Shown here: positions 38,023-50,967 of the stretch, in pieces
Layout: each line of letters opens with the position of its first letter
How positions within the stretch are numbered: the first letter of the stretch is position 1
NCBI GenBank assembly: GCA_040403075.1
Contig: JBBALJ010000001.1
Coordinates: 18,731 to 82,730 of the forward strand
Source: Bacteroidia bacterium
GTDB lineage: Bacteria; Bacteroidota; Bacteroidia; UKL13-3
Direction: 5' to 3'
Length of the DNA: 64,000 bases
The notes under the pieces: model-generated
The model's database searches: none
What the model was told of the DNA's origin: nothing
What the model saw: only the letters and a program-made list of their open reading frames with translations
Program-made: the position numbers and the translations under genes

Positions 38023-39267
38023 TTATTTAATCAAGTTTAGAATAGATATGTTATTTTCTATAAACAATGGTGTTCCGACAAAAGGTAAAAATAAATTAAC
38101 GCTCATGTAAGGGATACCGTATCTTACTTGCACAATTGCTAATGTCATCAGAGCACCAAACCCCAATAATGTTGTAAAATGAGTACGCTTCATTTTATAA
38201 TAGCTAAAAAGTTGAATCAAAGTTAAACAAGCTGCCACTTGATACAAAAGCAAGAATCTTGAATTAAATGAATGTATATCACTACCTAAATTGGTAATAG
38301 ACAAAACAAAAATTGAAAATAAAAATATGTTGTTTAGCTTTTCGGTATTGATGTATTTTTTATAGTCAAGAAAAATAAGCACAAATAATAGAATATACTT
38401 ACATATCTTTTGGTATTGAAGAAGAATAAATAAGCCAGTTTCCGTTTCCTCTTTAATTAAGTCTTTATAATAATCATCAGAATAGGTTAAAGCCCTCTGT
38501 TGCACAGAACCGCTTAGCGAATCACCATAAGCATTGATATATTGAGAAAGGACACCTTCGATTATAAACGAAGCTATGAGTATGGAATAATAAACCTTTT
38601 TGTTCTTGGGTAAATAATGAAACAGCAATATTAAAGCTATAAAAATAAAGAAGCTAAAATGAATTAGACCTGAGAAAATGCAAATAAATAGGTATTTTCT
38701 CTCTCCCTTAATCAGCAATCCAAACATCCCTAAAATAAATGTCATAAAGGCCACATACCATCTAAAATGATTAATGTCAAATATTGGTATTAAAAGGGCT
38801 ACATAAAACAAATATATTCTGGAATTGATATTTGGAAATTCATTAAAAATATTTATTAAGAATTTAAAAATTAACACGATATAGGTGCTAAAAATTAGAG
38901 AAAAAACAACAAACAAAAAATCTTTGTTATCAGTAAATCTAGATAGAATAAAATATAGAGTGGGTAAAAACAAATCTGCGGCATCATCATTCCCTTCAGT
39001 TTCTTTGACGAAAATTGCCATGATATAGTTTATGAAATCACCAAAGTCTCTTTTATGCATTTGTTGAAACATTTCTATATATGAATTGGCGTCAGCAAAT
39101 TCATCGGGGACAATAAAAGAGTAACCAAAAAGCATCGAAAATAAAATTACGATTAGTCTTGCGCCTTTATTTTCAATATTTGAGTATGCCTTGGATAATC
39201 CAAAAACTGGCCAAAATACAAAGAGAACTAAATTTTCTTTAAAATCGTAATTTTTTTTTAAATTCAA
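38023..39267 (-). CDS. wzy: O-antigen/capsule repeat-unit polymerase (Wzy, EpsG-like)
   Basis: 414 aa with more than 10 hydrophobic segments and no soluble domain. It lies near wzx, separated only by the putative transferase gene 39264..40289. Confidence 0.65.
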   Translation of the reverse strand: MNLKKNYDFKENLVLFVFWPVFGLSKAYSNIENKGARLIVILFSMLFGYSFIVPDEFADANSYIEMFQQMHKRDFGDFINYIMAIFVKETEGNDDAADLFLPTLYFILSRFTDNKDFLFVVFSLIFSTYIVLIFKFLINIFNEFPNINSRIYLFYVALLIPIFDINHFRWYVAFMTFILGMFGLLIKGERKYLFICIFSGLIHFSFFIFIALILLFHYLPKNKKVYYSILIASFIIEGVLSQYINAYGDSLSGSVQQRALTYSDDYYKDLIKEETETGLFILLQYQKICKYILLFVLIFLDYKKYINTEKLNNIFLFSIFVLSITNLGSDIHSFNSRFLLLYQVAACLTLIQLFSYYKMKRTHFTTLLGFGALMTLAIVQVRYGIPYMSVNLFLPFVGTPLFIENNISILNLIK

Positions 39268-40289
39268 AATATTATTTGATTAATTGATGTAATGGTTTTT
39301 ATGTGTTGGGTTGGATTATACGGATTTAATTGTTTAATAGCAAAATTCCATGGCATTAAATTCATGGTATAGTAAAATTTACAATCCAAATTGTTATTTA
39401 ATAATGCAGTAGACCAAGCGCTCAATACAATGCTTTTCTTTAGCTGCAAAATATAAAGTTCAGCAGGTATCATGTTTTCAATTATTTCAGCATTTAATTC
39501 TCGAACAAAGCTATTTTTCACATCAATATTGGCAAGCGGGTGTATTTTTATATACATCTTACAATTTTCACCCATTTTAATCCTCAAATCTTTTAAAAGA
39601 TTCATTTCCTCAACTTTAAATTCATCGTATGGCAAAGCTTGGTGCACATAAAAAATAACATTGGAAGTATAACCTAATGCCTTTTCAGAATTTAATTTAA
39701 ATATATTAAAAAGTTCAATCTTAGTATTTTCATTACTTAAAACGGGAATAGTTTTGATAAATTTGTTAAATTTATTCTCGAACGATTCAGGATTGGTTAA
39801 CCATATTTCAGTAATTTGTTTGCTTGATGCATATTTATATATTTCGAACAAATACAAGGAATTTAACATCAATCCAAACTTAAACAATGATTTATATCCA
39901 CTTATTGTATTTCTAATGGTTGATATAAATTCATGTTTTTTATTTACTTTGGTATAAGGCTTAAGTCCATCTTGCACCAAGGCAATTTTCGTTTTTTTGA
40001 GTTTTACCATTAAATATACCATCAATGGTTCATCTTCATTGAAAATAAAAACTTTTTCTACTCCTACATTTATCGTTTTATTTACAATATCAACTAATTC
40101 TGCAGAGTCCATTTTGACAGAAATTATTTCACAATTATTTGATTGGTAATTACAATCGAAATTCAACCTTTTCTCAGAAGCAATTGCGTATATTTTTATC
40201 AAGTCATACTGCTTGGCTATTTCCTTTTGGATAATATAGGAAGTGAGCAAATGATATTCGGTGTATGTAAAAAAAACTGCTTTTTTCAT
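39264..40289 (-). CDS. Candidate nonulosonic-acid (legionaminic/sialic-type) transferase
   Basis: 341 aa and soluble. Ordered motifs resemble bacterial sialyltransferase D/E-D/E-G, HP and S-S/T motifs: LVQDGLKPY, YIKIHPLAN, SAWSTALL. It lies between wzy and wzx, next to the CMP-nonulosonate genes. Confidence 0.4.
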   Translation of the reverse strand: MKKAVFFTYTEYHLLTSYIIQKEIAKQYDLIKIYAIASEKRLNFDCNYQSNNCEIISVKMDSAELVDIVNKTINVGVEKVFIFNEDEPLMVYLMVKLKKTKIALVQDGLKPYTKVNKKHEFISTIRNTISGYKSLFKFGLMLNSLYLFEIYKYASSKQITEIWLTNPESFENKFNKFIKTIPVLSNENTKIELFNIFKLNSEKALGYTSNVIFYVHQALPYDEFKVEEMNLLKDLRIKMGENCKMYIKIHPLANIDVKNSFVRELNAEIIENMIPAELYILQLKKSIVLSAWSTALLNNNLDCKFYYTMNLMPWNFAIKQLNPYNPTQHIKTITSINQIIF

Positions 40290-41576: not shown

Positions 41577-42254
41577 TTAGTTTTTAAGCAGAGTTTCTGC
41601 TAATTTCCAATCTAAATCATTATCAATATCAAGTGAGCTAGTTTCATCCATCTCATATTTCTTTATCTTCATAAAATCGGAAATAGGGCTATTCTTTAGT
41701 GATTCAACATTAATTATGTAAATGGCGCCATTAAACTCCCACACCCTAGGACAGTCTTGCCTTCTAGTAAACGCTGATTCTTTTGATTTTTTCAAATAAC
41801 CCATTTCGTTTTCTTCATATAGCAGGTAATATGGATTTGATTTGGTTTCCTTTACGGAAACTAACATATCTAATGATATATCATATAGACTTAAAGCTTC
41901 GTTAATTTGCTCACTCCTTCTAAAGGGAGAAGTGGGTTGTAAAAGAATGATTGTATTAGCTAAGTACCCTTTTGCTTCGTAAAATGAAACTGCATGCAAT
42001 AATACTTCTCTTGTTCCTGAGTGGTCTGTTGCCAATTCAGCTGGTCTGATAAAAGGAATATTTAATCCTGTTTGTTCAGCAATACTTTTTATTTCAAAAT
42101 CATCGGTTGATACACAAATAATATCATTTGAAAATAAATTTTGAGCAGCCTCAATTGTATAATGAATTAAAGGTTTACCATTTAATAACTTAATATTTTT
42201 TCTTGGAACACCTTTACTTCCTCCTCTGGCTGGAATTACTATTAGTGGCTTCAT
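41577..42254 (-). CDS. legF: CMP-nonulosonic acid synthetase (NeuA/LegF cytidylyltransferase family)
   Basis: 225 aa. IVIPARGGSKGVPRKNIKLLNGKPLIHYTIEAA and LQPTSPFR. Confidence 0.85.
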   Translation of the reverse strand: MKPLIVIPARGGSKGVPRKNIKLLNGKPLIHYTIEAAQNLFSNDIICVSTDDFEIKSIAEQTGLNIPFIRPAELATDHSGTREVLLHAVSFYEAKGYLANTIILLQPTSPFRRSEQINEALSLYDISLDMLVSVKETKSNPYYLLYEENEMGYLKKSKESAFTRRQDCPRVWEFNGAIYIINVESLKNSPISDFMKIKKYEMDETSSLDIDNDLDWKLAETLLKN

Positions 42255-43306
42255 TAAAACTTTAGTTGTTTAATATCTAGTTGCGCTTTTTCAAAGTCTT
42301 CGTGTTTGCCAATATCTAACCAATATCCAACTAGGGGATAAGCAACCACTTTCTTCCCTTCTTGGATTAACTGTTCCATTAAATCAGTGGCATTAAATGG
42401 AAGATTTTTAGGAACTGTATTAATCACTTCTTTTTTCATTAAATATATACCAGCATTGGAATAATGGGTATAAGTTGGTTTTTCTTTAAAACCAGTTACC
42501 ACCTTATCTTGAGTTTCCATAACAGCATAGGGCACATTTACTTGATAAGGAATACAAGCCACTGCAAAATCAGCTTCCTGTTCTTCAAAGAATAAAAATA
42601 AATCTTCAAAATCTATATTGGTAAGCAAATCAGAGTTCATTAATAAAACATGATCATGTATAAAACCATCAACCAATGCCAATGCCCCTGCAGTACCTAG
42701 AGCATTTTCCTCCCAAACATAATTAATACGTAAAGCCTTTTCACTGCCATCTTTGAAATATTCTACTAATTGGTTACCCAAATATCGAAGTGAAATCCAT
42801 ATATCATCAATACCATAAGTATTTAATCGATCTATATTATATTCAATGATGGGTTTATCTCCAACCTTTAATAAAGGTTTAGGTGTAGTATCAGTTAACG
42901 GTTTTAAGCGCTCACCTCTGCCGCCTGCCATAATTAAAGCATCTATTGGTAAATACGACTTTTGATGTCTGAAATTCACTACATTGATTACTTGCATTTC
43001 AGCATTAACAACTGGGAATATTGTAAAGAATTTTTCGCGTAATCCAATTATTTCTTTAAGGTTATATTTTCCTTGTTGTATAAATTTTGGATTGGGTTGA
43101 ATAAACTGATTTAAATGTTCATCAAACCCCAAACCTTTAATGAATCCTCGTCTCAAATCTCCATCGGTTAAGGAACCTAATAATTTATTTTCATCATCTA
43201 CTAAAAATAATATGGCATCAGATGCCAAATTATCAAGTATTTGAAGTGCTTGGCGCACAGTAGCATTGATGTGGGTTATATGTTTATTGAATGGATGCAT
43301 ATTCAT
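42254..43306 (-). CDS. ptmE: CBS-domain nucleotidyltransferase, PtmE-like (GlcN-1-P guanylyltransferase type)
   Basis: 350 aa. N-terminal CBS pair (LLGSLTDGDLRRGF...) followed by the NTP-transferase core IMAGGRGERLKPLTDTTPKPLL. Confidence 0.75.
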   Translation of the reverse strand: MNMHPFNKHITHINATVRQALQILDNLASDAILFLVDDENKLLGSLTDGDLRRGFIKGLGFDEHLNQFIQPNPKFIQQGKYNLKEIIGLREKFFTIFPVVNAEMQVINVVNFRHQKSYLPIDALIMAGGRGERLKPLTDTTPKPLLKVGDKPIIEYNIDRLNTYGIDDIWISLRYLGNQLVEYFKDGSEKALRINYVWEENALGTAGALALVDGFIHDHVLLMNSDLLTNIDFEDLFLFFEEQEADFAVACIPYQVNVPYAVMETQDKVVTGFKEKPTYTHYSNAGIYLMKKEVINTVPKNLPFNATDLMEQLIQEGKKVVAYPLVGYWLDIGKHEDFEKAQLDIKQLKF

Positions 43307-44405
43307 TTTTTAAGACCTCAATTATTGCTTTGGAAGGATTTGGTTTAAAATAGAGATTCTCCCCTAAATATTCTTTTTGAATATAATCGTTAACTTTTTG
43401 AATAATCACTTTTGAATCAAAAGAAATGTGAATTACATTTTCTCCACTTAGTCGTCCTTTCTGCCTATCCCCTAAATTCAAAACATATTTTTTGAATGTT
43501 GCTGCTTCAACTATACCACTTGATGTGTTACCTATCATCAATTTGGAATATTTCATGCAGGTAAAATAAGATTGTGTGCCAAAATTTTCAATAATCTTAA
43601 TATTAGTTTTTTTGCTAGCAAGATTTAAAAAAGACTCTCTGAATAGAATTCCTGCGGTATCTGCATTTGGCATAGTAATAATTATCTGATAGTTATTCGA
43701 TAAGTTATCTAACGCTTGGTTTATTTCTTCACAATAAACGGAATTCAACTTATATTCAACTGTTTCAGGATGAACAGTAACTAATATGGAAGGTATATTG
43801 AGGTCAATTTGCCACTTATCAAAAAATTCTTCTTTACTTAACAAGCGAAGGTTTTGTAAATTTTCCAAACTTAACGAACCTATATGGTACACATTTGTAA
43901 AATTGTCTAATAACTGTTTTAATCTATCTGAAAAAGCTTGTGCCGAAACAAAATGTAATGAGCTTGCTAAGCTAATGTTATGTCTATAAATATTATCTAT
44001 TGCACCTAAAGTGGTTTCTCCTCCATGTAGATGCCCAATTTTGATTCCAAATGGAATACTAGCAGCAACAGCTGCTGCCATTTCAAAACGGTCACCTAAG
44101 GCTAAAATAAAATCAAAATTATCATGCTCTTGTTCCCAATAATCTGCAAATTTTTGAACTGTTAATGCGTATGATGTGGCTATTGCATTGGGTGTATCAC
44201 CAATAAGAAGCGATTCTATTTTTTTAGTAATTTTAAAACCATCATTTTCAATTTGATTCACAGTATATCCGTGAAATTTTGAAAGATGTGTTCCAAAAAC
44301 AATTACTTTTAATTGAAAACTGTTATCTTCATTCAAAGCTTTAAGTAAAGGAAGATAAATCCCATAATCAGCTCTAGAACTTGTTAAAACACCAATTCTA
44401 ATCAT
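43284..44405 (-). CDS. legG: Hydrolysing NDP-HexNAc 2-epimerase (NeuC/LegG family)
   Basis: 373 aa. IGVLTSSRADYGIYLPLLKAL, LGDRFEMAAAVAA and GHLHGGE. Confidence 0.85.
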   Translation of the reverse strand: MIRIGVLTSSRADYGIYLPLLKALNEDNSFQLKVIVFGTHLSKFHGYTVNQIENDGFKITKKIESLLIGDTPNAIATSYALTVQKFADYWEQEHDNFDFILALGDRFEMAAAVAASIPFGIKIGHLHGGETTLGAIDNIYRHNISLASSLHFVSAQAFSDRLKQLLDNFTNVYHIGSLSLENLQNLRLLSKEEFFDKWQIDLNIPSILVTVHPETVEYKLNSVYCEEINQALDNLSNNYQIIITMPNADTAGILFRESFLNLASKKTNIKIIENFGTQSYFTCMKYSKLMIGNTSSGIVEAATFKKYVLNLGDRQKGRLSGENVIHISFDSKVIIQKVNDYIQKEYLGENLYFKPNPSKAIIEVLKNEYASIQ

Positions 44406-45427
44406 GCAAAATCATTTATATGAATTTTATGTCCTTTAGGTAAATCACTATGAATCTTTTTACCTATAATATCATCAATTAGCATAGGGGTAATACCATC
44501 ACCTGGTCTTAATGCAATCAAATCATCGCTTTTTAATATATGTTCTTTTTTTAAATCTTTTTTTACATGCAAACTTTTTCGCGCTATATCAATATTTTTT
44601 TTCTCACTATTACTAGGTTCTTTAACACCACTTCCTGAAATAGCTTCTTCAATATTTCTGATTGCCTGAACCATAGCTGTTAACTCATTTGGTTCTAGTG
44701 ATGCCGCGTGATCAGGTCCGGGTAATGTTCTATCTAAAGTAAAATGCTTTTCAATAACACAAGCACCTAATGCAACAGCAGCTATTGGAACTTCGATGCC
44801 TAAAGTATGGTCCGAATAGCCAACTTTAACCTTTAACTCATTTGCTATTTGATTCATGGCTAAAAGATTTACATCTTTCAAAGGTGTAGGATATTCAGTA
44901 TTACAATGTAAGACTGTAATTCTGTTTCTGTCAATTCCCTCGTTCTCAATTATTTCAATAGCGTCTTTTACCTCGTCTAAATAAGCCATTCCAGTAGATA
45001 AAATGATATCTCTCCCTTTAGATGCAATATGTTGCAAATAAGGTTTATTAGTTATTTCTCCTGATGGAATTTTATAGAATGGAAAATCTAACTTATTTAA
45101 AAAATCTATGCTATCCAAATCAAACCCTGTTGAAAGAAAATTAATTCCTTTTTCTTTACATCTTTTTATTAATCCATCGTACCAATCATCTCCCATCTCA
45201 AGCTTTTTAAGCATTTCAAACTGTGTGTCACTTTCACCAGCCATATTGTTGATTTGATAATCAGCTTTTTTTGCTGTAGGATTTACAATTTTTTCGGCCT
45301 TAAAAGTTTGAAATTTAACATAATCTGCGCCCGCAGTAGCAGCTGCATCAATAAGTTCTATTGCTTTTTGGTATTCACCATTGTGATTCACTCCAGCCTC
45401 TGCAATTATTACAACTTTATTTTTCAT
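44402..45427 (-). CDS. legI: Nonulosonic acid synthase (NeuB/LegI family)
   Basis: 341 aa. IIAEAGVNHNGEYQKAIELIDAAATAGADYVKFQTF, YKIPSGEITN and a C-terminal SAF/antifreeze-like domain. Confidence 0.9.
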   Translation of the reverse strand: MKNKVVIIAEAGVNHNGEYQKAIELIDAAATAGADYVKFQTFKAEKIVNPTAKKADYQINNMAGESDTQFEMLKKLEMGDDWYDGLIKRCKEKGINFLSTGFDLDSIDFLNKLDFPFYKIPSGEITNKPYLQHIASKGRDIILSTGMAYLDEVKDAIEIIENEGIDRNRITVLHCNTEYPTPLKDVNLLAMNQIANELKVKVGYSDHTLGIEVPIAAVALGACVIEKHFTLDRTLPGPDHAASLEPNELTAMVQAIRNIEEAISGSGVKEPSNSEKKNIDIARKSLHVKKDLKKEHILKSDDLIALRPGDGITPMLIDDIIGKKIHSDLPKGHKIHINDFA

Positions 45428-46047
45428 AACTCCCTCCCAGGATTTCCTACAATTTTTAAATTATCATCAATATCTTTTACAATTACACTTCCTGCACCAA
45501 CTATAACATTGTTTCCAATCTTTATACCTTGTCTTATAACTGAATTAGCACCTATAAATGAGTTTTCTCCAACACTTACATTTCCAGCTAATACAGCACC
45601 AGGCGCTATGTGAGAAGCTCTCCCGATTTTACACTCATGTTCAATAATACAACCTGTATTGAGAATTACATAGTCACTAATTTCCGTTAAAACATTAACA
45701 CAAACTTTTTTAGAAATAAATACACCATTACCAATAATTGCTATTTTAGAAATGCTTGCAGTATTGTCAATTACATTAATTAATTTTTGATTTTTTGAAA
45801 TAACTAGGTCACCAATTTTTTTTCTTAACTTATTATCTCCAATACCAAGCGTAAATTCAAAACCTTTATCCCAGCCAATAAACTTTTCATCACCTTCAAA
45901 ACCTAAATAAATTAAATCAAAAGGATTATATCTTGATTCTGTAATTTCAGTATAATGGATTAAATTCAAACCACTATTTATTGCCGCATCAGCTACAACA
46001 AAACCATGTCCCGAATATCCAATAATAACAACTTCTTTACCTAACAC
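45424..46047 (-). CDS. legH: NeuD/PglD/LegH-family N-acetyltransferase
   Basis: 207 aa. VIIGYSGHGFVVADAA N-terminal domain plus hexapeptide repeats. Confidence 0.8.
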   Translation of the reverse strand: MLGKEVVIIGYSGHGFVVADAAINSGLNLIHYTEITESRYNPFDLIYLGFEGDEKFIGWDKGFEFTLGIGDNKLRKKIGDLVISKNQKLINVIDNTASISKIAIIGNGVFISKKVCVNVLTEISDYVILNTGCIIEHECKIGRASHIAPGAVLAGNVSVGENSFIGANSVIRQGIKIGNNVIVGAGSVIVKDIDDNLKIVGNPGREL

Positions 46048-47173
46048 TGCTTGGAATATTTACAATTCTTTCTTCTAAAAATATAGCATTTTTTTGGTCA
46101 TCTCTAAAACAATGCTGATACATTGGTAAACGATACATTAATTGCCAAATTGGCCTTGTCATAGTTTTTCCATTATTAGTTTCTTTTAAAAATGCATTTC
46201 GTTCCTCAAGGTTTTGTAATTCAACGCACATCAACCAATAATTTACTTTTGTATGTTCATTTTCTTTTCTGAATTTTATACCAATTCCGTCAAAAAATGA
46301 TGAATATTCATTTGCAAGTGCTCTTTTGTTTTCAAGAAATTTATCTAGTTGTTCAAGTTGGGCGCAAACCAAAGCCGCATTTAAGTTTGGCATTCTAAAA
46401 TTATAACCTATTTGGTCGTGAACGTATTCATAAGGATGAGGCACTTTAGCTGTTGTTGTTAAATATTTTCCTTTAATACCAAGTTCAGTATCATCGGTAA
46501 CAATCATGCCTCCTCCGCCACACGTTACTATTTTATTACCGTTAAACGAAAAAATACCTAATTTACCAAACGAACCTGTGTGTTTACCTTTATAATAACT
46601 GCCGAGTGATTCGGCAGCATCTTCAACAATAGGAATATTCCATTCTTGACAAATTGAAACTAATTCATCTAAATGAACAGGAAATCCAAAAGTATGCATT
46701 GGAACGCAAGCTGAAATTCTTTTTCCAGTTTTTTTATTATAAGTACCTTCTGTCCTTTGTTCACCATATTCAGTTAAGAATTTAGCTACTGCTATAGGAG
46801 ATAGACCCATTGTATCATAATCAACATCTAAAAAGACAGGTTCAGCACCTGTATAACTAATTGCATTTGCAGTTGCTACAAAGGTTAGTGCTTGTGTAAG
46901 TACTTCATCCCCTTTTTGAACTCCAGCTAATTGCATTGCTATCTGTAAAGCAGAAGTTCCATTCACAACTGCAACAGCTTTTTGTGTTCCACTTATCTCA
47001 GATATTAATTTTTCAGATAAATCAACATATGCTCCAACAGAAGATACAAAAGTTGATTCTAATGTATCCATTACATACTTTCGCTCATTTCCTAAAAAAA
47101 CAGGAGCGTGCAAAGGTATAAACTCTTTGGTTTTGAATTTATCCCTAATAAAATCAATTACATTGTTATACAT
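46037..47173 (-). CDS. legC: LegC-type DegT-family aminotransferase
   Basis: 378 aa. FIPLHAPVFLGNERKYVMDTLESTFVSSVGAYV, NGTSALQIAM and SFNGNKIVTCGGGG. Confidence 0.85.
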   Translation of the reverse strand: MYNNVIDFIRDKFKTKEFIPLHAPVFLGNERKYVMDTLESTFVSSVGAYVDLSEKLISEISGTQKAVAVVNGTSALQIAMQLAGVQKGDEVLTQALTFVATANAISYTGAEPVFLDVDYDTMGLSPIAVAKFLTEYGEQRTEGTYNKKTGKRISACVPMHTFGFPVHLDELVSICQEWNIPIVEDAAESLGSYYKGKHTGSFGKLGIFSFNGNKIVTCGGGGMIVTDDTELGIKGKYLTTTAKVPHPYEYVHDQIGYNFRMPNLNAALVCAQLEQLDKFLENKRALANEYSSFFDGIGIKFRKENEHTKVNYWLMCVELQNLEERNAFLKETNNGKTMTRPIWQLMYRLPMYQHCFRDDQKNAIFLEERIVNIPSSVR

Positions 47174-48171
47174 TAGTAGTTAATTTGATAGTTTCCGTAT
47201 TTATTTTTATTTTTTAAAGAGTCACTATAAACACCTATTTTAAAAGCATTTATTAACTCTTCAATTCCATTTTTCACAGTGTATTTAGGCACAAATCCTA
47301 AAGTTTCTTTCACCTTTTTAAAGGAAACTTTATAATTTCTAGGATCAGTTCCATTTGCACCATATTTGATTTTTGCATCAGGAATGTATGAGGCAATAGT
47401 ATCTACAATCATTTTTTTTGTAAAGTTATTGACCTCACCTCCAGCGTTAAATACTTCAAAATTAACTTTTTCACTGTCTGCATCAATAACTAATTCAATA
47501 AGTCTTGCAAAATCTCTTACATGACAATAAGGTCTCCAAGTATGTTCATCAAAAACTACTAATTCTTCACCAAAATATAAATCACGAACGAATTCGCTCA
47601 CGCTTAAATCAAATCTCATTCTTGGCGATAAACCAAATGCGGTTGCAAATCTTAACACTGTTCCTGTATAAGAAACTTTCCCTTTTTTAGACATTAAGTG
47701 CAATTCCGCTGCAACTTTTGCCTTTGCATATAATGAGAGGGGGTTAAGCTCAAAATTTTCATCAGCAAGTTCATTTTCTTTTATCAAACCATAATTTGAA
47801 CATGTTGATATTAAGATTAATTTATTTAATTTTTTATCATCAAAAAAGTCAATACAATTTTGAACTCCTATATCGTTAATTGCATTTGATGCTTCTGGGT
47901 AACTTTTTGTAATAGGGTCACCAACTAAACCACCCAAAATTACTACATTTTCAATCCCTTCTGCTGCTCTTGCAAGTGTGTTAGTATCACCTAGGTCACC
48001 AGAAACAAATTCATAATTTTCATCACCTAAATAGGCTTGAATTGCTTCCTGATTATCATAAACAAAATTATCTAGAGCCCTTACCTTGAAACCCAATTTT
48101 AAAAAGTGAGAGGTAATAACGGTGCCTACATATCCAGCACCTCCAATTAATAATACATTCTTTGTTTTCAT
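47173..48171 (-). CDS. legB: NAD-dependent NDP-HexNAc 4,6-dehydratase (LegB-like SDR)
   Basis: 332 aa. LLIGGAGYVGTV Rossmann and YAKAKVAAE (YxxxK). First gene of the Leg-type block. Confidence 0.75.
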   Translation of the reverse strand: MKTKNVLLIGGAGYVGTVITSHFLKLGFKVRALDNFVYDNQEAIQAYLGDENYEFVSGDLGDTNTLARAAEGIENVVILGGLVGDPITKSYPEASNAINDIGVQNCIDFFDDKKLNKLILISTCSNYGLIKENELADENFELNPLSLYAKAKVAAELHLMSKKGKVSYTGTVLRFATAFGLSPRMRFDLSVSEFVRDLYFGEELVVFDEHTWRPYCHVRDFARLIELVIDADSEKVNFEVFNAGGEVNNFTKKMIVDTIASYIPDAKIKYGANGTDPRNYKVSFKKVKETLGFVPKYTVKNGIEELINAFKIGVYSDSLKNKNKYGNYQINY

Positions 48172-48179
48172 TTTTTTAT

Positions 48180-49367
48180 TTAAATATAATTTTCAATAAT
48201 ATAATCTGCAATAGATAAAGAAGCAGTGGCGCCAGGTGATGGGGCATTTAATACATGGATTTGATTTTGATGTTTATAAATTTTAAAGTCCATAATTAAA
48301 TTACCACTGTTATCCATAGCCTGAGCTCTAACACCTGCAGTTCCTGATTTTAGCATATAATCTTCAACATCAGGAATTAACTTTTTGGCTTTTTTTACAA
48401 ATGAACTTTTAAATATTGAACTGGCAAATTCGTTAACTGCAAATCCGAAATTTTTGTATAAAAATTTATAAAAACCTTTGTAAGTAAAGGTGTCAATACT
48501 ATCTGCTAATGATATTTGTGTATTTTTATAACCTTCCCTTTTTAAAGCTAAAACGGCATTGGGTCCTACTTCTCTTCCTCCATTAATCATTCTAGTAAAA
48601 TGAACTCCTAAAAATGGATATTGTGGATCGGGAACAGGATATATAAGATGATTAACTAGTGTTTTATATTCATGTTTTATTTCCATATATTCACCTCTAA
48701 AAGGTATTATACGTAAAGGTCTTATATTTTTTGTTAGCTTTCTATAGGTTAAGTCTGAGTGAAGCCCTGTACAATTAATTATTAAATCAAATTTCGCACT
48801 AAAAGATTTAGTTTCAACTATTATTCCATCGTTTTTCTCCGAAATTTTTAGTATTTCGTCATTAAAATGAAAGTTACCGTCATTACCTTTTATTAAGTCT
48901 GCCATTTTATTCATGACCATATGATAATCAACAATTCCTTCCTCTGGAACTAGTAATGATTTTTCAGCTCTAACATTTGGTTCTCTTTCATTTAATTGTT
49001 GTTTGGTTAAAATTTTTAGTCCTTTTAAACCATTTAATTCTCCTCTTTTCGCAAGAGAATCTAACAAAGTTATTTCTCTTGTATTGCTAGCTACTACTAT
49101 TTTACCACAAACATCATGTTCAATTTTATTGTCTTGGCAAAAGGAAATCATTTGCCTTATCCCATCAACAGCTAATTTAGCTTTCAACGAGCCAGGTTCA
49201 TAGTATAATCCACAATGTAATACACCACTATTATTACCAGATTGATGTTTTCCTAATTTATCCTCTTTTTCAATTAATGTAATTTCATTATTTTTAATTT
49301 TTGATAATTTATAACCTACAGCAAGGCCTAAAATTCCTCCTCCAACAACTAGTATTTTTTTACTCAT
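48180..49367 (-). CDS. lhgO: L-2-hydroxyglutarate oxidase-family FAD oxidoreductase
   Basis: 395 aa. VVGGGILGLAVG, HQSGNNSGVLHCGLYYEPGSLKA, PFRGEY, NHLIYPVPDPQYPFLGVHFTRMINGGREVGPNAVLALKREGY, GVRAQA and NAPSPGATAS track E. coli LhgO closely, from memory. Confidence 0.85.
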   Translation of the reverse strand: MSKKILVVGGGILGLAVGYKLSKIKNNEITLIEKEDKLGKHQSGNNSGVLHCGLYYEPGSLKAKLAVDGIRQMISFCQDNKIEHDVCGKIVVASNTREITLLDSLAKRGELNGLKGLKILTKQQLNEREPNVRAEKSLLVPEEGIVDYHMVMNKMADLIKGNDGNFHFNDEILKISEKNDGIIVETKSFSAKFDLIINCTGLHSDLTYRKLTKNIRPLRIIPFRGEYMEIKHEYKTLVNHLIYPVPDPQYPFLGVHFTRMINGGREVGPNAVLALKREGYKNTQISLADSIDTFTYKGFYKFLYKNFGFAVNEFASSIFKSSFVKKAKKLIPDVEDYMLKSGTAGVRAQAMDNSGNLIMDFKIYKHQNQIHVLNAPSPGATASLSIADYIIENYI

Positions 49368-49375
49368 TTGTTATT

Positions 49376-49819
49376 TTAATTATAGGTTTTATTAGTATTA
49401 AATATATTTACATTAATCATTCTCATTAATGTAAAAGGATCTTTTTCTGAACGAACATGTTTTAATGCCGATAAATTTAGAACATAGTCATATCTTCCGT
49501 CTGACTCAATAAATGCGTCATACTCGTTTGATCCAATATCTAACGCAAAAGTCTGAAAATCACCTTCAATGTAACCATATGTGCTTCTAATATCTCTTAC
49601 CAATTCAACCATGTTATTTTCAGAGATATCAACAACATGGAGCTTTTTGGGATTGCGTTTGAAAATTTCTTTTGTAACTGCTTGCCCAATAGATCCAGCT
49701 CCACCTATTACCAAAAACGAAGATGTATTAACAACTTCTTGAAGTTTTATTTCATTTAACTTAATATCTTCAGTAAATAAGAAATTATTCCTTCCAATTA
49801 AATTTAATGTATCCATCAT
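49376..49819 (-). pseudogene. Truncated CapD/Polysacc_synt_2-like dehydratase (N-terminal Rossmann part only)
   Basis: 147 aa. LVIGGAGSIGQAVTKEIFKRNPKKLHVVDISENN and LSALKHVRSEKDP align with the first part of the catalytic domain of 8081..10057. The ORF stops before the catalytic S/T...YxxxK region, and the next gene starts 9 nt later. Confidence 0.5.
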
Positions 49820-49827
49820 ATATTAAA

Positions 49828-50967
49828 TTACTCAAAAAAATTGTACGTTTTATATCCTTCATCACGAAGGAATTTATCTTTTTGCATAAGTCTAAAATCA
49901 CTTTTCACCATGTCTTCAACCAAAGATTTTAGGTCATACTTGGGTTTCCAACCTAGTTGTGACATCGATTTTGTAGGGTCACCTACCAATAAATCTACCT
50001 CGGTTGGTCTGTAATATCTTGGGTCAACTGCAATAATATCGTCACCTATTTTTAGTTTACAAACTTCAGATAGTTTCAATTGATCCATTTTATTTTTATC
50101 AAAACCAATTATATATCCAATTTCATTTTCATCACTGCCTTTGAAATCTAGCATGACTCCCAATTCATTAAATGCCATGCGTACAAATTCTCTAACATGT
50201 GTAGTAATGCCTGTTGCAATAACAAAATCTTCCGCTTTTTCTTGCTGCAAAATCAACCACATTGCTTCAACATAATCTTTTGCATGTCCCCAATCTCTTT
50301 GGGCATTTAGATTACCTAGGAATACTTTGTCTTGCAGACCTAATGCTATTTTAGCAGCAGCTCTTGTAATTTTTCTAGTAACAAATGTTTCTCCTCTAAT
50401 TGGACTTTCGTGATTAAAGAGGATTCCATTTGAAGCAAACATATTATAGGCTTCTCTATAGTTTACTGTAATCCAATATGCATATAATTTAGCCACTGCA
50501 TATGGAGATCTAGGGTAAAAAGGTGTGGTTTCAGATTGAGGTACAGCTTGAACCAAACCATAAAGCTCAGAAGTGGAAGCTTGGTAAATCTTGGTTTTAT
50601 GAGTCAACCCACATATTCTTATGGCTTCTAATATTCTTAGTGTGCCAATACCGTCTGCATTGGCTGTATATTCAGGCATCTCGAAACTTACATGCACATG
50701 ACTCATGGCAGCTAAATTGTAAATTTCATCTGGCTGCGTTTCTTGTATAATTCTAATGAGATTACTACTATCCGTTAAATCACCATAGTGTAGTTTAAGG
50801 TTCACATTTTTCTCATGTGGATCTTGGTAAAGATGGTCAATTCTATCCGTATTAAACGAAGAACTTCTTCTTTTTAATCCATGCACCATGTAGCCTTTTT
50901 TCAATAAAAACTCAGCTAAATAGGCTCCATCTTGACCTGTAATACCAGTGATTAAAGCTACTTTCAT
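49828..50967 (-). CDS. gmd: GDP-mannose 4,6-dehydratase
   Basis: 379 aa. [56 protein letters not shown] and [17 protein letters not shown]. Confidence 0.95.

Follow-up and report, generated by a model that had tools for sequence, protein, structure and literature searches.

A second L-2-hydroxyglutarate oxidase gene beside a Cj1427-like dehydrogenase gene and a dehydratase stub in a Bacteroidia surface-glycan operon

In Pseudomonas aeruginosa, WbpB makes D-2-hydroxyglutarate from 2-oxoglutarate and is inhibited by that product, and deletion of the D-2-hydroxyglutarate dehydrogenase (D2HGDH) lowers O-antigen (PMC8651671). Published accounts of Campylobacter jejuni Cj1427 describe an enzyme that is purified with tightly bound NADH, report that added NAD+ gives no activity, and attribute reoxidation of the NADH to 2-oxoglutarate, which yields L-2-hydroxyglutarate (L-2-HG) (PMC10680097, PMC9978623, PMC7949155); C4 of the GDP-sugar is then oxidized in what is reported as a ping-pong mechanism (PMC10680097). 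Here we analyze a 64,000-nucleotide stretch of a Bacteroidia bacterium genome (GenBank assembly GCA_040403075.1, contig JBBALJ010000001.1, positions 18,731 to 82,730; hereafter the window), in which a long minus-strand surface-glycan operon carries a paralogue of lhgO, the L-2-HG oxidase gene, between the gene for a short-chain dehydrogenase/reductase (SDR) and a 147-codon open reading frame (ORF) that we call the stub. LhgO probably recycles L-2-HG released by the adjacent SDR, and the stub is probably the leftover of a dehydratase gene displaced by a cassette that lhgO and the SDR gene lead. The ORF positions, lengths, and 8-nucleotide gaps given in a first-pass annotation of this DNA were all exact, and the features on which the first half of the argument turns are as follows.

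48180-49367, minus strand: lhgO paralogue, 395 amino acids, predicted flavin adenine dinucleotide (FAD)-dependent L-2-HG oxidase/dehydrogenase (NF008726; second genome copy)
48172-48179, minus strand: 8-nucleotide AT-rich spacer between lhgO and the SDR gene
47173-48171, minus strand: Cj1427-like extended SDR, 332 amino acids, predicted nucleotide-sugar C4-dehydrogenase with 2-oxoglutarate as predicted oxidant (best PDB match, 6VO6/6VO8)
46037-47173, minus strand: LegC-family pyridoxal phosphate aminotransferase (TIGR04181, 529 bits; cut-off, 420)

The identity that the first-pass annotation gave the 395-residue protein is borne out by a score of 482.3 bits on NF008726, the NCBIfam equivalog "L-2-hydroxyglutarate oxidase" (cut-off, 299 bits), over model positions 2 to 388 of 389. 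Its best PDB match is the Drosophila L-2-hydroxyglutarate dehydrogenase (L2HGDH) structure 8W75 (E = 3e-87). In the fly enzyme, Ser88, His92, Tyr289, Leu299, His302, and Arg393 bind 2-oxoglutarate, contacting its C1 carboxylate, C2 oxygen, and C5 carboxylate, and the arginine selects the C5 dicarboxylate (PMC10726252). A HMMER alignment to the structure places S47, H51, Y243, L253, H256, and R347 of the window LhgO at these positions, and all six residues are invariant in an alignment of 24 members of its clade. Because the ligand residues are kept and the ratio of nonsynonymous to synonymous divergence (Ka/Ks) against the closest relative, on contig L019, is as low as 0.077, a change of substrate is unlikely.

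The genome has two NF008726 members, the window copy and a housekeeping copy on another contig (G000:C12), which scores 545 bits, is flanked by an M1 peptidase gene and gyrA, and groups in the tree with the single copies of related genomes. Judged by its sequence, the window protein is a true L-2-HG oxidase/dehydrogenase and represents a second, dedicated copy encoded within the operon. It is only 46% identical to the housekeeping copy, and this divergence and the gap between 482 and 545 bits could be read as a move to another 2-hydroxy acid, or to a sugar-linked hydroxy-acyl group (e.g., lactyl, glyceryl, or hydroxybutyryl) decorating the amino sugar or nonulosonic acid. Nonulosonic acids often bear hydroxy-acyl N-substituents, and the clade also occurs beside enzymes that are not known to make L-2-HG. 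We nevertheless find such a shift unlikely, given that the arginine selecting the C5 dicarboxylate is among the residues invariant in the clade and that the score lies well above a curated equivalog cut-off.

In the LhgO tree, the window copy falls in a 42-row clade (support, 100), 32 rows of which stand beside sugar aminotransferase or SDR genes. The housekeeping copies of the window's own family form another clade (support, 99), apart from this glycan clade, and SDR adjacency changes at least seven times on the tree. One complete genome of the same family (G013; loci L017 and L033) has as its sole LhgO a 62% identical member of the glycan clade, directly upstream of an AsnB-like amidotransferase gene and Wza/Wzc export genes; it has no SDR or DegT gene near LhgO and no housekeeping-type copy in the genome.

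The 332-residue neighbor had been labeled LegB-like in the first-pass annotation, and this label does not hold. On the LegB model TIGR04180 the protein scored 53 bits against a cut-off of 475, and was outscored by both the window's Gmd (101 bits) and its TviC-like epimerase (131 bits). Being so far below the cut-off, it was rejected as LegB, the NAD-dependent GDP-N-acetylglucosamine (GDP-GlcNAc) 4,6-dehydratase. Its best match among solved structures is 6VO6/6VO8 (E = 2.9e-50, 174 bits, residues 3 to 312), the next match scoring 76 bits. C. jejuni genomes match the 6VO6 sequence at 96% identity, and we take it to be Cj1427 itself, from the depositor's molecule name. The window SDR is 37% identical to 6VO6 over its full length.

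The two proteins have the stretch FG(L/I)SPRMR(F/L)DL in common. Where the window Gmd reads STSELYG, the window SDR reads STCSNYG and Cj1427 reads NTNSGYG, so that the dehydratase glutamate is replaced by serine in the window SDR, in all its relatives, and in Cj1427; Tyr-x3-Lys is kept (YAKAK and YGIDK, respectively), and STCSNYG is invariant in the SDR-family alignment. The Asp/Glu acid/base pair that 4,6-dehydratases have behind the threonine is missing from the window SDR. Since Cj1427 is the closest solved relative and the dehydratase glutamate is absent, the window SDR is best read as a C4-dehydrogenase rather than a 4,6-dehydratase. By analogy with Cj1427, it would depend on 2-oxoglutarate and its expected by-product would be L-2-HG, the exact substrate of LhgO. 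The cysteine of STCSNYG (Cys124) is invariant in the SDR family down to 40% identity. Cysteine serves as acid/base in some SDR epimerases, and the window SDR might also epimerize the 4-keto sugar.

The pairing of the two genes is found well beyond the window. The independent ENA contig L019 has gmd, a 146-residue stub, LhgO (89% identity), SDR (94%), and a DegT aminotransferase gene, and a JGI contig has the same order, with a gmd-LhgO interval that is equally long and in which only a 48-residue ORF was called. More distant LhgOs (64 to 70% identity) have other genes upstream, rmlC for example, and directly precede a 76 to 82% identical SDR together with an aminotransferase and nonulosonic-acid genes. 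An lhgO gene lies immediately upstream of a 74 to 94% identical SDR gene and a DegT gene in L019, the JGI contig, L021 to L025, and L057, with varying upstream neighbors; in L027, an 84% identical SDR is found about 2.3 kb downstream of lhgO, with two genes intervening. A DegT gene follows the SDR gene in nearly all related loci, and the order of the nonulosonic-acid cassette is the same in L020, L021, L024, and L057.

We compared the features found within 6 kb of lhgO in 80 loci from named genomes, 37 of which had an LhgO at least 53% identical to the window copy and 43 an LhgO at most 50% identical. DegT aminotransferases were found in 26 of the 37 versus 2 of the 43, WlbA-like GFO dehydrogenases in 16 versus none, and Cj1427-like SDRs in 6 versus 1 (L075, 42%). 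The six comprise L025, L027, and L057, with SDR identities of 74 to 84%, L051 and L056 (about 40%), and L046, a partial match cut by the end of the locus. Four further loci with both a Cj1427-like SDR and LhgO came from metagenome contigs. A locus search with the window LhgO protein alone gave only one distant, uninformative locus.

The 16 loci with GFO enzymes place the LhgO clade inside WbpA/WbpD/WlbA/WbpE-like diacetamido-uronic-acid modules (L049, L036, L039, L043, L044, L058, L059, L028, L034, and others), which are typically arranged as UDP-sugar dehydrogenase, acetyltransferase, GFO dehydrogenase, WbpP-like epimerase, LhgO, DegT, and AsnB. The best PDB matches of these GFO neighbors are 3Q2I/3Q2K, which we take to be the enzymes from Bordetella pertussis and from Chromobacterium violaceum, and not the P. 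aeruginosa or Thermus thermophilus structures. For that class, one published account gives a sequential mechanism without 2-oxoglutarate (PMC10622841). We therefore dropped the GFO context as support for coupling to 2-oxoglutarate.

The reverse comparison was centered on the SDR family, for which the genome collection gives at least 569 matches; 80 of these loci, spread over many phyla, were sampled. An LhgO-family gene was immediately adjacent in 8 of the 80. An alignment of seven of the eight (Chlorobium, Melioribacteraceae, Deinococcales, Gaiellaceae, another actinomycete, Clostridiaceae, and Nomurabacteria) shows the six ligand residues kept in every one. One of 20 Cj1427 orthologues, in a Caldisericaceae locus and at 68% identity to Cj1427, likewise has LhgO directly upstream. 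Six adjacent LhgOs, five from the sample plus the Caldisericaceae protein, were scanned with NF008726, and four scored above the cut-off. LhgO-family genes adjoin Cj1427-like SDR genes in at least eight phyla, and the LhgO sequences involved differ greatly; by a rough estimate that ignores phylogeny, chance would bring two single-copy genes together in fewer than 0.1% of genomes of about 3000 genes. Some modules are minimal, with the order nucleotidyltransferase-LhgO-SDR-DegT (L154 and L179) or just LhgO-SDR (L170), and no ligase-like gene was called between their genes.

These arrangements bear on a proposal of the first-pass annotation that enzymes of the locus link (S)-2-hydroxyglutaryl to a 4-amino sugar, with LhgO supplying, balancing, or proofreading the acyl donor. 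The precedent it named, an O-antigen of Flexibacter (Tenacibaculum) maritimus that contains (S)-2-hydroxyglutaric acid, is indeed in the literature (PMC4052302), and a Cj1427-like enzyme would give exactly the (S)/L enantiomer. LhgO-family enzymes, however, oxidize L-2-HG and hence would destroy the donor (PMC10726252). The neighbor conserved across phyla is an SDR and not a ligase, the minimal modules have no ligase-like gene between their genes, and no acyl-ligase gene adjoins lhgO in the window. We consider a donor role for LhgO very improbable, and retain from the proposal its correct premise that LhgO is functionally part of the glycan locus.

The SDR gene is usually preceded by a gene for a sugar-1-phosphate nucleotidyltransferase of about 230 residues and followed by a DegT gene. 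This three-gene module of nucleotidyltransferase, STCSNYG-type SDR, and DegT, seen in the sample (L106 to L185), is widespread, its matches, at least 569, spanning Bacteroidota, Alphaproteobacteria, Actinomycetota, Chloroflexota, candidate phyla, and archaea. It is apparently an uncharacterized route to 4-amino-4-deoxy sugars without 6-deoxygenation.

The gene identities, conserved substrate-binding residues, paralogy, and recurrent adjacency are established here, as is the shared junction described below; the SDR's dependence on 2-oxoglutarate, its L-2-HG product, its sugar substrate, and a physiological benefit of recycling are what we infer, as follows. A PtmE-like enzyme would make a GDP-amino sugar, probably the GDP-GlcNAc on which the SDR would act. 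The SDR, holding NADH tightly, would reduce 2-oxoglutarate to L-2-HG and next oxidize C4 of the nucleotide sugar; the LegC-family aminotransferase would turn the 4-keto sugar into an amine, converting glutamate to 2-oxoglutarate. LhgO would convert L-2-HG back to 2-oxoglutarate, with the electrons going from its FAD to quinone or O2 as respiratory acceptor. Such recycling would regenerate the co-substrate, remove a product inhibitor and toxic metabolite, and pull an unfavorable alcohol oxidation forward.

The second half of the argument concerns the DNA upstream of lhgO, which is laid out as follows.

49368-49375, minus strand: 8-nucleotide spacer AATAACAA from the stub stop to the lhgO start, putative recombination junction, identical in the window and L019
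49376-49819, minus strand: stub, 147 amino acids, putative 5' remnant (residues 1 to about 145) of a Polysacc_synt_2 4,6-dehydratase gene of about 395 codons, without the catalytic STDKA region
49820-49827, minus strand: 8-nucleotide AT-rich spacer between gmd and the stub
49828-50967, minus strand: gmd, GDP-mannose 4,6-dehydratase (TIGR01472, 590 bits), left flank of the junction and outside the module

The stub matches the Pfam family Polysacc_synt_2 at positions 2 to 111 of 293 only. In an exhaustive search, it aligned residue for residue with positions 1 to 145 of proteins 393 to 400 residues long, so the first-pass annotation was right to call the dehydratase gene truncated: it stops at about residue 145 of about 395. 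Over 139 residues, the stub is 80% identical to the full-length protein encoded at L034:8248-9435, which runs on into a catalytic region containing CVSTDKA, with STDKA at about residue 160, beyond the stub's stop. The missing 3' part, for remnants of which the first-pass annotation advised a search, has left none in the window, and there is no intact copy of the dehydratase elsewhere in the assembly.

The junction, ...AAA ACC TAT AAT TAA-AATAACAA-ATG (KTYN and a stop, the spacer, and the lhgO start), is identical in the window and L019, and therefore one event gave rise to both states; the spacer is AT-rich like the other two 8-nucleotide spacers. Synonymous divergence (Ks) against L019 is 2.5 for gmd but 0.7 to 0.9 for the stub, LhgO, and the SDR, a step that locates a recombination boundary at gmd/stub. 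Nucleotide identity to L019 is likewise uneven (49820-50200): it is 52 to 70% over gmd's 3' third and some 90 nucleotides at the start of the stub, and 78 to 97% from there on in the stub, in lhgO, and in the SDR gene; the locus is therefore a mosaic, with a boundary near the gmd/stub border. In sliding windows, the nucleotide divergence of the stub tracks that of lhgO.

In L207, the order is gmd, full dehydratase, DegT, NeuB, and NeuC, which is likely ancestral. A Phaeodactylibacter metagenome-assembled genome (L057:2793-7146) has a dehydratase cut at residue 257, followed by an N-terminal LhgO fragment of about 190 residues, a sulfotransferase gene (PF00685), and, beyond a 600-bp gap, an lhgO-SDR-LegC cassette that is intact; these serial scars suggest repeated cassette replacement at the site. 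With the identical junction in L019, the different truncation in L057, and the intact order in L207, the first-pass annotation's alternative reading, in which recombination destroyed the dehydratase gene, gains support. We postulate that the nonulosonic-acid cassette was once headed by a canonical 395-codon 4,6-dehydratase gene, of which the stub is the leftover 5' third, and that the recombination bringing in the lhgO-SDR-led cassette replaced the gene's 3' two-thirds. The truncated gene would thus show nonulosonic-acid cassettes being swapped by recombination inside a highly conserved first gene.

Short homologues of the stub do occur in a large protein database. Many of the named ones are labeled partial by their source, and most lie on short contigs; the three examined on long contigs are parts of full genes that frameshifts have split in noisy assemblies. 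No stand-alone family of about 150 residues emerged, in keeping with the first-pass annotation's view of the ORF as a fragment, and L019 alone shares the true short form, with the same junction. L206, L207, and L208 are error-rich long contigs in which most genes near the match are split, and they inflate the apparent number of short homologues. An assembly artifact was rejected, given that the independent ENA contig has the same junction at 80 to 94% protein identity. An exact scan of metagenome contigs for the 23-nucleotide junction gave a single match (L105), which is due to chance and has no homology to any gene of the locus.

Several findings weigh against the account given above. The first concerns the stub, whose Ka/Ks against L019 is 0.13 over a Ks of 0.94 (about 39 nonsynonymous and 54 synonymous changes), which is unexpected for a dead remnant. 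A breakpoint inside the stub was considered as the cause and rejected, because the stub codiverged with lhgO in sliding windows, with only its first 90 or so nucleotides and gmd more divergent. The ORF might instead be a retained small NAD-binding protein, for instance a subunit or regulator. It is intact, with the same length and junction in two lineages at this Ks, its Ka/Ks is low, and its divergence matches that of lhgO, so that recent exchange is no explanation. The ORF, however, has no catalytic region at all and is short of about half of its Rossmann fold; the L019 stub has lost a glycine from the dinucleotide-binding motif (GGAGSIG to DGAGSIG); only a 48-residue ORF was called in the third carrier, the JGI contig; and the remaining short homologues are contig-end partials or frameshift pieces. 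Retention for a function is, in our estimate, rather unlikely, although less so than the other alternatives considered here, and we continue to regard the stub as a remnant.

The other points concern recycling by LhgO. Dependence on 2-oxoglutarate is known for Cj1427 itself, to which the window SDR is just 37% identical, and the WbpB precedent yields the D- and not the L- enantiomer. LhgO is not adjacent in 72 of the 80 sampled SDR loci, and two distant LhgO-like proteins that are adjacent fall below the NF008726 cut-off (245 and 256 bits versus 299). The 16 of 37 clade loci beside WlbA-like GFO enzymes of the class reported to be independent of 2-oxoglutarate form an association that the account would cover only if the Bacteroidota enzymes behave differently. 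In addition, in a genome of the same family that is 99% complete (G047), the same cassette is headed by a 69% identical SDR, yet the whole genome is without LhgO; LhgO is therefore an accessory or optional helper and not a requirement.

That G047 runs the cassette without LhgO, and that a clear recombination scar adjoins lhgO, would also suit a mere passenger, a gene that came with the recombination that broke the dehydratase gene and has no role in glycan synthesis. Against this stand the low Ka/Ks of LhgO (0.077), the maintenance of the lhgO-SDR pair behind varied upstream genes (gmd plus stub, rmlC, and others) in several lineages, the recurrence of the adjacency in at least eight phyla whose LhgO sequences differ greatly, and a housekeeping LhgO already present in the genome. 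We give the passenger explanation little credence and hold to recycling of the SDR's L-2-HG as the probable role of LhgO.

Downstream of the aminotransferase gene lie the rest of the cassette and further glycan genes.

41577-46047, minus strand: remaining nonulosonic-acid cassette, comprising a NeuD/LegH-like acetyltransferase, NeuB/LegI-like synthase, NeuC-like hydrolyzing 2-epimerase, PtmE-like nucleotidyltransferase, and CMP-sugar synthetase
39264-40289, minus strand: 341-residue protein between wzy-like and wzx-like genes, with a match to the alpha-2,8-polysialyltransferase family PF07388 (E = 1e-11)

What is new here is a legionaminic-type cassette with the lhgO-SDR pair at its head instead of one or the other known dehydratase, an arrangement that predicts a non-9-deoxy 5,7-diamino nonulosonic acid or an unrecognized dehydratase activity. 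We speculate further, and quite tentatively, that two things hold together: that the pair is a portable 2-oxoglutarate/L-2-HG shuttle that wires C4 oxidation to the respiratory chain and has been acquired repeatedly in many phyla, and that it replaces the 4,6-dehydratase step of legionaminic acid synthesis at this locus. An SDR that oxidizes C4 only would leave the C6 hydroxyl in place. The end product would then be a 5,7-diacetamido-3,5,7-trideoxy-nonulosonic acid with a 9-hydroxyl, a 7-amino sialic acid analogue, and not the 9-deoxy legionaminic acid. In the literature library searched, a query for a natural 3,5,7-trideoxy nonulosonic acid returned nothing relevant, and one for LhgO within polysaccharide clusters returned no report of LhgO as a member of a glycan operon.

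If LhgO does recycle L-2-HG for the SDR, this would explain why a "metabolite-repair" flavoenzyme recurs in surface-glycan loci. It would also extend the sole experimental case, in which a D-2-hydroxyglutarate dehydrogenase aids Pseudomonas WbpB, to a pair that works with the L enantiomer, has a dehydrogenase of the SDR family, and includes a dedicated recycling gene within one operon. A simple rule would follow, namely, that lhgO next to an SDR or GFO gene marks 2-oxoglutarate-dependent sugar oxidation (the GFO context itself not being counted as support). The annotation of the neighbor changes from "LegB-like dehydratase" to "Cj1427-like C4-dehydrogenase," and with it the predicted sugar.

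Compared with Escherichia coli LhgO (YgaF) and eukaryotic L2HGDH, the window LhgO belongs to the same family, with the same fold and six ligand residues, and presumably catalyzes the same reaction; those enzymes are encoded by stand-alone housekeeping or catabolic genes, whereas the window LhgO is a second copy within a surface-glycan operon and comes from a clade confined almost entirely to operons of this kind, next to genes for sugar dehydrogenases and aminotransferases. The window SDR and Cj1427 share a Thr/Tyr/Lys triad, a serine at the dehydratase glutamate position, and a GDP-sugar type of context. They differ in that the window SDR family has an invariant cysteine (STCSNYG) where Cj1427 has asparagine, and in that the 4-keto product goes to epimerases and a reductase in C. 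jejuni and would go to an aminotransferase and the nonulosonic-acid cassette in the window. The Campylobacter and Helicobacter Cj1427 loci sampled have no LhgO within their 6-kb flanks.

From the C. jejuni CMP-legionaminic acid pathway (LegB/C/H/G/I/F plus PtmE), the window operon has homologues of LegC, LegH/NeuD, LegI/NeuB, and LegG/NeuC, a PtmE-like enzyme, and a CMP-synthetase. Unlike that pathway, it is without a LegB-type 4,6-dehydratase; the Cj1427-like SDR and LhgO stand in its place, and the Polysacc_synt_2 dehydratase is truncated. The logic proposed for the window is that of WbpB and D2HGDH in P. aeruginosa, in which 2-oxoglutarate serves as oxidant for a sugar-nucleotide dehydrogenase that binds NADH tightly, and an FAD-dependent 2-hydroxyglutarate dehydrogenase recycles the product. 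The P. aeruginosa system works with the D- enantiomer, a GFO-family dehydrogenase, and a nonhomologous, unlinked housekeeping D2HGDH, whereas the window would use the L- enantiomer, an SDR-family dehydrogenase, and a dedicated LhgO encoded in the same operon.

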